From Okamejei kenojei (lineage: Eukaryota), in contig CM069151.1 of the NCBI GenBank assembly GCA_035221665.1, positions 32,736,001-32,800,000 of the forward strand: a DNA stretch of 64,000 bases. The letters run 5' to 3'. The position numbers and the translations under genes were made by a program. Positions 1-11,205 of this stretch are shown piece after piece; positions within the stretch are counted from its first letter, which is position 1, and every line of letters starts with the position of its first letter. The notes under the pieces are model-generated. The model did no database searches. It saw only the letters and a list, made by a program, of their open reading frames with translations, and had not been told where the DNA came from.

Positions 1-213
1 GTGGCTTAAACGTGGCTAATGAGGGAAATTAGAGATAGTGTTAAGAGTAAGGAGTAGGAATTAACGGGTTCTATTCAGAGTGGCAGCCAGTGACTCATGC
101 GGTGCCGCAAGGCTCAGTGCTGGGACACCAGTTATTGACAATATATATTAACTATTCAGATGAAGGAATTAAATGTATCATCTCCACTTTTGCGGATGAC
201 ACAAAGTTGGGGG
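1..213 (+). mobile_element. CR1/HER1-type LINE ORF2 (RT) fragment
   Basis: Degenerate ...VPQGSVLG...FADDTKLG RT motif (tttgcggatgacacaaagttggg) resembling the other CR1 copies in the window. Confidence 0.85.
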
Positions 214-723
214 TGGGGTTCTATTTGTGCAAAAACGATATGCGATAGTGCTATGATTTTTCACCAGGTTACTCACCATTCTCGTGTGCTGGGAGTGCAA
301 CAAGTTTTGTTCCGATCGGTGGTGTATTGTAAAAATTATCGAGGTTTAAAAATCATAAAAACCGCGCGTGCATATTCCTGCAGTCAGCGCCACGCAGATT
401 GGTCTCTTCTCCTGTCACTCAATGCCACAGCCGCGAAGGTGACGCCTCTTCCTGCGCTGCCGCGGCCTCTCCCGCCTCACTCGCAAACTCCTCTCTCCCC
501 TCCTCATAGCAAATTGTCTATCGTCTCCCCCACCACCACCAGCGGCCGCGCGGTGGGGGGGTTCAGTGGAGGCCTCTGTCTGTCTCTCCCACTCTCTCTC
601 CCACTCCCTCTCCCACTCTCTCTCCCACTCCCTCTCCCCCTCCCCCCCCCCCCCCTCTGCGGCAATCCGTCTCTCCGTCCCCCCCGGTCCGTCTCCTCCG
701 CTGCCGCCGTTGCGGTAACTCAC

Positions 724-786
724 CATCATGGCCCTCTCGAAGGAGATCTTCTCCACCAGCTCATCGAAACTCGTGGTGCCCACCGT
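724..786 (-). pseudogene. ALG13: Captured fragment of ALG13 exon 1 (TVGTTSFDELVEKISFERAMM) followed by donor GTGAGT
   Basis: Matches the recalled ALG13 N-terminus (MKCVFVTVGTTSFDDLIACVSAPDSLQ); high GC3; ends in phase 0 at GTGAGT (plus-strand actcac 718-723). Confidence 0.75.
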
Positions 787-1108
787 GCTCCATACCCCCC
801 CGCTGCCCGGCAACGGCAGCGAGCAGGCAGGTTGGTGGGTGGGCAGGGCAGGGACGGGACGAGCAGCAGTAGCGGGCGGTCGGACAGGACGGGACGGGGA
901 CGGGCCGAGCGACGGCTGAGCCAGAGTGGCCAGAGGGAGGGAGGGAGAGTCGGGTTGCAGGGTGGCCGAGCAGTTTGCGCGGAGTTTGAGTCACTCACAC
1001 ACACTCACACGATGCAAACTGGTCCAATCGTCAAGTCAACAGAATCTAAGCCACAGCTAACAATGAATGATCTGTGGAAGACTGAACTGCAGATGCTGCT
1101 TTTTATGG

Positions 1109-1562
1109 ATGGGGGGAGGGAGGGAGTGACTGAGGGTCGGGGAAAGGAGAGGGAGGGAGAGATGAGGGGGGGATTGGGGGAGGGAAGTCGGAGGGGGGAA
1201 AGATTCTGGGGAGGTGAGGAGGGAGTGTGTGGGGATTGAGGGAGAGGAAGTGGTAGGGAGGGAGAGGGGAAAAGTGGGGAAGGTGAGGAGAGTGGGGGAG
1301 GGGGGAATCAAGGGAGAGAGTAGGGAATGGAGAGGAGGGCAGGGGGGAGGTCAGGAGGGATAGTGGGGGGGATAGGGGGAGTGGAGGATAGAGGGATAGG
1401 AGGGGGGTGGGGAAAGGAGAGGAGTTATGGAGGGAGGGAGTGACTGAGGATAGGGGAAAGGAGAGGGAGCGAGAGGTGAGGGAGGAATTGGGGAGGGGAG
1501 GAGGAGAGGGGAAAGAAGAGGGAGGGTGAAGAGAGGAAGGGAGTGTTGGGGATGAGGGGAAA
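1109..1562 (+). repeat. Polypurine (G/A-rich) low-complexity tract inside the Helitron
   Basis: About 450 nt almost entirely G/A with many GGG(G) runs. Confidence 0.9.
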
Positions 1563-4500
1563 TGAGCCGTGCCTGCGCAGTTGGGGGCTCTGCGTGAATG
1601 GTGCAATATTGCGTTAGGGGGACGGATTGCATTGGGGAAAACGGGTGAGTGGTGGAATATTGCGTTTGGAAACGGGTTGCGTTGGGGGACCAGGCTTCCC
1701 ATGTGACAGGGACCCAACGGGTCCCACTTAGTCTAGTAATTCTTAAAACTAGGCTGTGTAAGCACTGAATGAGCCTACAAAGTTACTGGTCGAGAGCTTA
1801 GAAGTAGGAGTAATTGAAGTAGTTTTGGGCTACCTGAGTACATTGGACTGAATAGTCTCCTCTGTACCATAAATTTCTTTAGTATTCAGGTTCTTTGCTT
1901 AGCATTGTTCATACAATGCCTCAAATGAACAAAACATACAAAGGAATGAGAAGGCTGGCTTGCTTATTATGCTTATATTACAACCACTATTAATGTACTT
2001 GAATCATAGCTATACCTAACTTCTGTGAATTAGAATGATTGGAATAAATGAACAATGTACCCAGGATGAATAATAGATTGCATTTGTTCTTGATTAAGGT
2101 ATCATAAATAATTGACAAAGTATGTGGTAACACTCGGGAAGATGCAAACATTTATAAAGACAAAATCAGGACTGTGAATTTAATGGTAATCAGAAATTGA
2201 CTAGGGTTGGTTTCTGAAAAAATGTGGTAGAGGTGGAGCTCTGTTTGGGAGCAGGAGTATAAGGTGGGTAAGGACCACCATGTAAGAGCTAAAAAAAAGG
2301 CAGCATGTCTGGATAACATGGATAGGTGAGGTTTTTGGTCGGGACCCCTTTTCAGATCATGTAGGGAACACCAGGTAGGAGCCATTTTATCTCAATGCGT
2401 AATGACCTACCATAACAGAGCTTGGGAGGGTAACCCATTAAGGGATTCTGCAAATTCTCATCTTCTTTTGCTGCTTTCCTCCTCATTTTCTGAAACAGCT
2501 GCTCTGCTTCGTCCATTATCATTGACCACTCTCTGAACATGTGGTAAGGGACTCCGATGCGGATTACAAACATCTTCGGCTCCAATTGAAGAAAGCTATC
2601 TGGACTCTTTGAGGATGTTGGTAATGATCTAGTAGCAATGGTATCTGTATTATGTGGTCTTAATGAGTTTGGACAGATGTACCTTCAACAGGCATAAGAT
2701 CCCCAGCATCCAAACATTCATGGTCCTTTCAGGGCTGAGAATTGTATTACCAGAGGGCATTAAATATGTTTGGATTCAATCTGACAAGGGGGGGCAGCGT
2801 TTTTGAGTCAAACAGTCTAAAAGTGATAATGACCGGACTAGTGTGACAGTTGCTGATTAGAGTAAAATGCAGCTAGAATCATATCCATTCTCAGCTATCT
2901 TTTGATTATAGTTCATTTTACTAGGAAAGTATTCTGCTTGACAAAGCAGAACTTTTGACCTGTCACTCTCAGCTCCATTCGATTTCCATTTACCTGTTAT
3001 CAGTCATTTATTACTTTTGCAGAGATCATCAGCAACACTTTATCATCAAACCACCTGCAGATCTTTGAAATACAGTGAAATAGTTCTAAAAGTATTTCTG
3101 ATTAGACTGTCACATAGTAAAATATATATTGTGTTTGATTAGGTGGCTAAGCAATGCCATTCCCTGCTGTCCATTGACTTTAGCTCTATTTTCAACCATT
3201 GAATTGAGTGGTTAATCTTATGGATTGTTGTTGCTTTTTGTTTCAAATATTTCTACAACTCCAAAATAGCAATTAAAAGAACTACCAACTAAACTCTTGT
3301 TTTGCATTAGCTTTCTTTTTTCTCATAAACTTAATGGATTTTCAGCCTTATGGCTCTTTTTTGATTTCTGATCTTTGATTGCTGAATCTTTCGTAAAATG
3401 CAAAAAATTAATACATTTGGAGTTTATAGATGAAAGTTAATCCTCATTGTTGGCATGTTGACACTGTTTAGATCCAAATGCAGCCATTTCTTTCTGAATG
3501 CTGAGAGATTGCTTAATTTCTTGGACTGTAATTATGCAGAGCTGAATGCATAACGTTTATGGCTATGACTTTTTTTTTTTAGATATCAACACCCTAAAGG
3601 TACTGGTCACAAAATTCTAAAATTAATAACTTCCCATTGTACTGTGCCTGTAACACAACAAAAGAATGCAAGAAAGGTCAGTGGACCATTCCTGCCCTAT
3701 CTCATTGAACTAATTAAACTCAGTCAACACATTTGCAATCACTGGAAGCTAGTTTCAAAGACGGCATCTAATTGTTGATGCACAATATAATGCAATGACT
3801 ACCCACTGTGAATGGTGAACCCCTTCTCTCTCTCTTCCAGAAATGGTTTTGGCATCTGGTTAAGCCATGCTCCCATGTTTACAGGAATGAAAACTATAAA
3901 TCAGCTGCAATGATTCTGAAAATAGTCTTTGAAAAATATTCAATACCCTGTAATAGACATTCATGTAATAAAAAAATTAAACTGATTTTCAAAAATTAAG
4001 ACTAACAAATTAAACACTTTTTTAAAAATGGGGCTTGTTTAATTAAATTGAGTTACTAATTTAAAAACATTAAAAAAAACTCATGGAAATGAACAGAGTT
4101 GCAGAACTTATACTAGGTCGCTCGCGTTGGCATGATCAGACGACAGTGGCAAAGATCTCTTCGGAAGTTTGGGTCTTCCATGTTCCTGCAAGTGATTTGG
4201 AGTGTCAGTCCTGCCCTCTCGACAAAAGATTCCAACTCAATAATTTTGTTGAATGTCCCAAATATATTATGGATGTATATCAAATAAAATTGACACTGAT
4301 TATAAAAGAAAGGAACTTCTTCAAAGTTTTTAGCTGTTATTAGCATGACTAGTATTTATCACCCATGAGTTGGACATGTTCAGTTATAACCTTTACAGTC
4401 CTTCTGGTGAATGTAATCCCAAAGAGTTTCAGGATTAGAGCTTCTAGGATATTTACCTAGCAGAGATGAAGGAATACATGTCCAAAGTCAGAATGTCACC

Positions 4501-8383: not shown

Positions 8384-9278
8384 CTAGACTAAGTGGGACC
8401 CATCAGGTCCCAGCTTCTCAAGGGAGGGCTGGTCCCCCAACACAATATTCCACAATAGTGCTTTCTGGAGCGCTAGCATGGTGAGGTGGGCCGAAGGGAC
8501 GGTTTCCATAGGGCTATTATGGACATTGTGAGCCAAATGGATTCTTGGGCTGGCAGCTCAGTCATTGAGACCACACACACACACACATACACTCACTGAC
8601 TCACACACCACATGAATGGCAGTAAACTTTCTTGAATACTCAAACAGCTGAGCGCGGTCTCTCCACTTTGGGGCTTCTGTAGTCAGCGGCACTTCCGCAA
8701 TCAACGTGACCTCTGCACTTACCGGCGATTACGCAATCAACGTGACCTCTGCACTCACTAGAAATTACGCAATCAGCGTGACTTGTCCACTAAGCGGAAG
8801 TCACGAAATGAGCGGGACTTTTGAACCAAACAGACGGAGCTAATAAAGCATTTATTCCTTCTAAACAGTCGGACCTAATAAAGCAATGCAGTTTCAAGCA
8901 CAGGCAGGGCAGCAGACCAAACAACTCATAGCATTGTCATTAAGGGCTAACAAATCATTTATTGCAAATACATTGCACAGTTCAGTTGATTCACAGCTTA
9001 GAATGAGTCGCGATCTTGCAGAATGACTGAGTCATGTCGAGGCATCCAGGGTTTTATAGTCCCCTCCCCCCGGAAGGGGTATTACCTTCATCGCGGTGAT
9101 TGACGTGAGAGGATCTCAGGTTTATTAATAACTTTTTTATTTTTCATTGATGTGAAAAAATCATCGGGGCCTGTGAGTAAGATGGCCAAAAATCATAGCG
9201 ATATGGTAGAGGATTTTTCTAAAATCAATATACAGCGCAGACAGGAAGTGGTCAAGATTAGACTTTTAATCATATAGA
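8384..9278 (-). mobile_element. Complete non-autonomous Helitron (895 bp)
   Basis: Minus strand reads A|TCTATATGATTAAAAGTC ... GGGACC-TGATG-GGTCCC hairpin ... ACTTAGTCTAG|T: TC 5' end, CTAG 3' end, A/T insertion site, no TSD. Confidence 0.88.
8690..8822. repeat. 36-bp minisatellite (about 4 copies) inside the Helitron
   Basis: cgcaatca recurs at 8696, 8732 and 8768, with a degenerate copy at 8804. Confidence 0.85.
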
Positions 9279-10790: not shown

Positions 10791-10968
10791 AGTACAATAT
10801 TGAAAACTGGAGCAAAAATCTGTGGATGCTGAAAATTCAAAACAAAACTGAAAATGCCCAGAGCATTCAACAGGTCAGGCAGCATCCATGTGGTCATCAA
10901 TTTCCAAAGCTTGCATGATGTACATGAGTTTATGAAATTTGTTCCTTACTTCCAGTTTTCTCTTTCAG

Positions 10969-11205
10969 CTGGCTGTTTGATCTTGGGCTGCATGATCTTT
11001 CCAGATGGCTGGGATTCAGATGAAGTAAAACGCATGTGTGGGGAAAAAACAGACAAGTACACCCTTGGTGCCTGCTCTGTTCGCTGGGCCTACATTCTGG
11101 CAATTATTGGAATCCTAGACGCTCTCATCCTTTCATTTCTGGCATTCGTCCTAGGCAACAGGCAAGATGGTTTACTGCCAGATGACTTCAAAGTGGATGC
11201 CAAAG
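10969..11205 (+). CDS. LHFPL3: LHFPL tetraspan subfamily member 3, internal coding exon (TM3-TM4)
   Basis: tttctctttcag| acceptor and |gtatga donor, 237 nt, phase 1/1; [66 protein letters not shown] is nearly identical to recalled vertebrate LHFPL3; synteny with KMT2E. Confidence 0.95.

Follow-up and report, generated by a model that had tools for sequence, protein, structure and literature searches.

A decayed non-autonomous Helitron carrying the 5′ end of ALG13 in the skate Okamejei kenojei, likely captured once at the DNA level

In vertebrates, capture of gene 5′ ends by Helitrons has been described in bats and, in 2025, in Xenopus (PMC4224331, PMC4778049, PMC12001565). According to the main accounts, HelibatN3 of Myotis carries the promoter, 5′ UTR, first exon and splice donor of NUBPL and is present in about a thousand copies (PMC4224331, PMC4778049). 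HelibatN217.1, also of Myotis, contains a 5′ fragment of TMBIM4 that is reversed relative to the Helitron (PMC4224331), and Heli1Xen1 of Xenopus laevis has mostly captured the 5′ ends of genes (17 of 19 fragments; PMC12001565). The comparison also took in PMC11417382, PMC2997563 and PMC5381603. No report of Helitron capture was found for cartilaginous fishes among the matching papers, which were general surveys and genome papers; Repbase or Dfam may contain the family unlabelled. No paper was found whose main text links Helitrons and ALG13; the supplementary gene lists of PMC4224331 and PMC12001565 could include the gene.

The element described here lies in a 64,000-nucleotide stretch of the O. 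kenojei genome (‘the window’; contig CM069151.1, positions 32,736,001–32,800,000). It is very probably a decayed copy of a non-autonomous Helitron subfamily with about 500 bp of the ALG13 5′ end, likely captured once at the DNA level, likely copied by a Rep-helicase acting in trans and likely a neutral passenger now. Its closest precedent is HelibatN3, which has the same architecture but differs in host lineage, in the gene taken, in carrying six codons rather than 27 and in having been shown to give chimeric transcripts (PMC4224331, PMC4778049). As in HelibatN217.1, the captured fragment is reversed; a related Helitron 3′ end lies beside the bat parent gene (PMC4224331), whereas none was found within 70 kb of ALG13. 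Heli1Xen1 is young and of low copy number, with 64 insertions in all (PMC12001565), whereas the skate subfamily has at least about 370 copies, 4–6% diverged at non-CpG sites. The capture of ALG13 by a skate Helitron is real and well supported; as far as the literature was searched, it has no precedent in the lineage or for the gene, and captures of this kind are already known from bats and frogs.

The cargo sits in a 1.5-kb non-autonomous Helitron at window positions 220–1736, which terminates in a hairpin and CTAG|T. On the minus strand, positions 786–724 translate as TVGTTSFDELVEKISFERAMM and are followed directly by GTGAGT at 723–718, exactly as an earlier note on this DNA had read them. 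The note's assignment to ALG13 exon 1 is borne out by an alignment of window 640–1102 with the species' ALG13 locus at C13:63,825,490–63,825,983, which crosses the exon 1–intron 1 junction (375/505 identities, 74% with gaps, E = 3e-87). The fragment had been placed at 660–790; its exon and splice-donor part stands, while its extent has to be revised, as the real piece measures about 460–500 bp and includes the 5′ UTR and upstream region. It consists of the 81-bp exon 1, flanked by approximately 95 bp of intron 1 on one side and by about 320 bp of DNA 5′ of the ATG on the other, and it is collinear with the host gene across the exon–intron junction, as in DNA-level capture of the HelibatN3 type. 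The presence of DNA from the beginning of intron 1 and from upstream of the gene excludes a retrocopy; the capture took place at the DNA level, in agreement with the note.

In the window copy, all three captured parts are on the minus strand. The start of intron 1, beginning with the donor site, occupies 640–723; the coding part of exon 1 occupies 724–793; and the 5′ UTR with the upstream, putative promoter region occupies 794–1102, holds a CA repeat and terminates at the shared breakpoint C13:63,825,983. The ATG (793–791) is kept, but an 11-bp deletion after codon 2 leaves the peptide quoted above out of frame with it, and the ATG frame stops after 10 codons. Positions 456–639 (plus strand) are a GC/CT-rich segment typical of the ALG13 subfamily. 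Its left part was assigned no origin; its right part shows weak similarity to the ~50 bp that follow in ALG13 intron 1, so that the captured intron may extend by that length beyond the 640 side of the cargo. A Pfam search with the 21-aa window peptide gave no match.

The parent gene can be taken as the ALG13 ortholog by its sequence. A search of the O. kenojei genome with the PF04101 profile gave 16 matches, ten loci were fetched, and an ALG13-like exon was found in one of them on C13 (L036). The other fetched loci were rejected as ALG13: they match profile positions ~71–155 only, and the one translated looked like a UGT. Within 70 kb around L036 there are three collinear minus-strand exons: exon 1 at C13:63,825,663–63,825,583 (81 bp, 27 codons) and, from the PF04101 search, exon 2 near 63,822,298 and exon 3 near 63,819,685. 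These cover profile positions 2–22 (a weak match, E = 0.087), 32–80 and 80–120. For exon 2, identity to ALG13 is 98% in Leucoraja and 78–91% in other sharks and rays (21 hits among 29 candidates from NCBI relatives), and the Leucoraja protein begins with the very 27 residues of the exon 1 peptide. The true locus that the note had expected, matching across the exon 1–intron 1 junction, is therefore found at C13. Sequence searches of the PDB with exons 1 and 2 found nothing, and an Atlas search returned generic PF04101 clusters only.

The note's statement that the first exon ends at this residue is corroborated by sequencing run X21, in which one contig leaves the window at position 726 with letters matching the start of ALG13 exon 2. 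The captured donor site is thus the site that ALG13 itself uses. The run is labelled ‘RNA?, probably DNA’, and this spliced junction argues for RNA. No Helitron ends were found within 70 kb of the donor locus, which scores at background. Its upstream end runs into a dispersed repeat, and intron 1 holds a CAG-rich minisatellite at C13:63,824,720–63,825,420 (L043), just past the captured part and absent from the copies.

The structure of the carrier is that of a canonical, non-autonomous Helitron of the HLE1 type. Its 3′ end at 1571–1736 (plus strand) contains a 7-bp hairpin stem at 1709–1725 (z −2.25) and CTAG at 1733–1736, followed by T. The motif GGGTCCCACTTAGTCTAG is found at 1719–1736 and again at 8384–8401 on the minus strand (two matches against 0.03 expected), and the Helitron 3′ end claimed earlier is thereby confirmed. 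Upstream of it lies a GA-rich low-complexity tail (1103–1570, plus strand), also present in sister subfamilies without ALG13, and the 5′ body common to all subfamilies occupies 220–455 (plus strand). The cargo is thus flanked by a 5′ body common to all subfamilies and by a GA-rich tail and 3′ end that sister subfamilies use. The family starts with A|TCTATACATAACTAAAAC and finishes with the 7-bp hairpin and CTAG|T. Among the scored 5′ ends, A|TC was seen in 25 of 44, TC in 33 and a preceding A in 27, under loose scoring; among the scored 3′ ends, 21 of 29 have CTAG and 26 have T as the next base. Insertion therefore takes place between A and T, and no target-site duplication was evident by eye in the flanks of the scored copies. 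Copies with both ends range from 0.7 to 2.1 kb, the least deleted being 1.5–1.6 kb (21 copies).

The window copy lacks the first ~54 bp of the 5′ body, including the family terminus. Position 220 (TC) was considered as the 5′ terminus and rejected, since the family reaches ~54 bp further out; the missing piece was not found in the 10 kb upstream. A LINE fragment, which we take to be of the CR1 type, adjoins the element at 53–213 (plus strand; it matches an RT-coding repeat in L131 at 79.8% over 168 bp) and is missing its 3′ continuation; the repeat normally extends past 211–213, where loose contig ends are seen. The 5′ end was thus lost together with adjoining LINE sequence, and after this deletion the copy would be unable to move.

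Related Rep-helicase elements are present in the same genome. A PF14214 profile search gave 101 matches, and in the six regions fetched, Rep and helicase remnants (PF14214, E = 3e-53; PIF1, E = 1e-52) are followed by the same 3′ end on C5, C11 and C13. In the C5 element, Rep and helicase are flanked by a related 5′ end on one side and by the identical hairpin–CTAG|T end on the other. The 3′ end is shared exactly, whereas the 5′ ends are similar rather than identical, and all six elements examined are broken. A Rep remnant on C1 that seemed paired with the exact 5′ end of the ALG13 carriers was discarded, as the end in question is part of a nested non-autonomous copy of ~1 kb. The window holds a second non-autonomous Helitron at 8384–9278 (minus strand; ~0.9 kb), with both ends and without ALG13 cargo. 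Its 5′, internal and 3′ sequences recur in the remnants on C5, C11 and C13, so it is likely a deletion derivative of these.

The carrier has been spread widely through the genome, as the earlier note had anticipated. A 20-mer from the exon, allowing at most one mismatch, gave 374 hits genome-wide and none for the control, a lower bound that should include the ALG13 donor; a 111-bp search gave 560 first-look candidates, of which 40 were scored. The 58 copies examined form a biased sample (30 chosen by similarity to the window copy and 28 by the exact exon 20-mer on C1–C3, with two duplicates dropped), and 57 of them carry Helitron ends. Both the 5′ body and the 3′ end lie within 1.5 kb in 40 copies, the 5′ body alone in 14, the 3′ end alone in three and neither in one. 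The cargo has therefore been amplified inside the element ends, while the parent locus is free of them. The Helitron 5′ motif gave 2,196 hits, and ALG13 cargo was present within 1.5 kb at 4 of 30 such loci, which makes the ALG13 carrier one subfamily among several.

Copies were also seen in other species. DNA runs of organisms C and I each gave about 95 contigs over the ALG13 exon end, and in organism I contigs connect the Helitron body with the ALG13 piece; at 80% likeness, such junctions are weak evidence. No piece spanning the window 219/220 junction was present among the matches listed for either organism. With so many copies in both, the capture probably predates the split of these species.

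Comparison of the copies with each other and with the donor points to a single capture followed by amplification, as the breakpoints and founder changes are shared. The upstream breakpoint lies exactly at C13:63,825,983 in 32 of the 58 copies, and the intron-side end falls within 63,825,440–495 in 49, with none lower. Six copies that seemed to cross the upstream breakpoint proved to be separate matches to the dispersed repeat. All 30 aligned copies have a 3-bp indel relative to the donor just after GTGAGTT, and codon 19 is AAG (Lys) in 56 of 58 copies (28 of them selected on it), compared with Glu in the donor, Leucoraja, Mobula, Pristis and Narcine. Measured against the column majority, non-CpG sites have diverged by 4.3% in the exon and intron, by 4.0% in the distal part of the upstream region and by 6.2% in the body of the Helitron; 4 of 121 non-CpG sites distinguish the donor from the copy majority.

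Among 88 loci there are 65 clean 5′ ends, of which 32 are preceded by TCTA-type repeats and six directly by the CTAG of another copy, which suggests that the element reinserts into its own TCTA^T. Long (TCTA)n tracts stand at the 5′ ends of L003, L015, L016, L017, L023 and L025, and head-to-tail tandem copies with a junction lacking the first TCTA occur in L010, L013, L024, L111 and L120. Self-insertion of this kind may make the element a source of microsatellites and compound elements.

The best fit to these data is end bypass or compound transposition at an unfixed insertion in the ALG13 CpG island, with template switching as the alternative. A Helitron at or near the open CpG island would have run past its terminator or switched template, taking in the antisense strand of the ALG13 promoter and exon and acquiring the GA-rich tail and 3′ end of the sister subfamilies. 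Because the donor has no Helitron ends now, the founder insertion would never have been fixed, and with no capture trace at the donor, end bypass, compound transposition and gap-repair capture look alike. Bats are similar in this respect, as most of their parent loci have no Helitron nearby (26 cases without, against three with one; PMC4224331). The 6.9-fold preference of Helraiser for CpG islands (PMC4778049) would explain the choice of ALG13 as a target. A Rep-helicase supplied in trans would then have amplified the element, the copies would have been methylated in the germ line and left to drift, and the window copy would later have lost its 5′ terminus.

The host gene of the window copy belongs to the LHFPL family. 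PF10242 exon 1 at C21:32,689,825 and exon 2 at window 10962–11162, both on the plus strand, enclose the element, which lies within the ~57-kb intron 1 and has its ALG13 piece in antisense orientation. The earlier placement in an LHFPL3 intron thus holds at the family level, the paralog being presumably LHFPL3.

Under the reading that best survives beside neutral passage, the origin would be the same, but some copies would act as portable promoters or exon traps: the ALG13 promoter would fire and the donor would splice to downstream host or cryptic acceptors, as with HelibatN3 in bats. This is possible, if on the unlikely side. It is plausible that a few of the several hundred copies are active, and in the 58 copies the ATG is kept in 40, the exact GTGAGT in 40 and ATG, frame and GT together in 27. 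The bat NUBPL case was shown in cells and in three endogenous transcripts (PMC4778049). In the skate, however, decay is neutral and CpG loss family-wide. Outside CpG sites and probe columns, the exon has 152 non-synonymous and 32 synonymous changes (pN/pS 1.18), so there is no coding constraint on it, and CpG sites are 19% diverged against 4% elsewhere, with 274 of 356 CpG changes being transitions, the pattern expected of methylated copies. The CpG observed/expected ratio is 0.75 in the window copy, 0.66 in the copy mean and 0.85 in the donor. The captured 320 bp may hold less than the full promoter. The window copy, frameshifted and antisense to the host gene, cannot splice into LHFPL exon 2, though it could give an antisense transcript. 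No RNA record was listed over window 200–1800, which has no bearing on expression. Among the 24 matches listed from assembled contigs of two small same-species runs of uncertain type (1,353 more lie beyond the listing), the one loose end at the donor site is ALG13 exon 2, and none is chimeric. Given the 27 intact copies and the above-average CpG content of the window copy, inertness is not proven copy by copy; the ALG13 fragments, the window copy included, are nevertheless likely inert passengers.

The reverse direction, in which a transposon donated the first exon or promoter to ALG13, is highly improbable. The donor's upstream end does run into a dispersed repeat, but 20 of 21 relatives, ranging from sharks to an insect, conserve the peptide of exon 1, which refutes this origin for the exon; moreover, the donor is without Helitron ends and the copies carry derived changes absent from it. 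Processed pseudogenes or plain segmental duplicates of ALG13 lying near Helitrons by chance would account for the similarity to ALG13 and nothing beyond it, a practically negligible prospect refuted by the exon–intron junction with upstream DNA, a donor match confined to a ~500-bp stretch around exon 1, flanks that differ between copies right outside the Helitron ends, and ends in fixed position at 57 of 58 copies.

Behind the same 5′ end, other subfamilies carry different internal sequences. Of 30 loci carrying the 5′ end of the family, 17 contain module B, a GC-rich exon-like segment with a GTGAGT end (L092:950–1209, minus strand; L094:1866–1945; L149:1496–1580, minus strand) that has 1,994 first-look candidates. 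One of its frames is open, and it is possibly an older first-exon capture. A second GC-rich cargo, module C, lies downstream of B (L120:891–1007 and L092:797–921, both minus strand) in 3 of 30 loci, with 662 candidates. No donor was found for either module: in each search the best 30 loci all seemed to be copies of the family, and none of 50 candidates scored when one frame of module B was searched as protein. DcpS, guessed as a sister-cargo donor, gave no match, its controls being silent too. Further internal sequences, including GC-rich repeats, are found in L107, L108 and L116; a tandem array among them also occurs near the 3′ end of Rep-helicase remnants.

In skates, the fragments can interfere with the annotation of ALG13, with primers and with the mapping of reads. 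Since their donor is known and hundreds of them occur over several species, they provide a test set for how often captured promoters stay active. A far-reaching and rather doubtful proposal is that a skate Helitron lineage numbering more than 2,000 copies has picked up one CpG-island first exon and promoter after another (ALG13, plus two more GC-rich exon-like cargoes) and scattered them as working promoter or exon-trap cassettes; if true, this would add a third vertebrate case, independent of the other two, and would supply transcripts specific to skates. The present case from a cartilaginous fish, clean and high in copy number, suggests that a bias towards promoters and first exons is general to vertebrate Helitrons, in line with the 6.9-fold CpG-island preference reported for Helraiser (PMC4778049).
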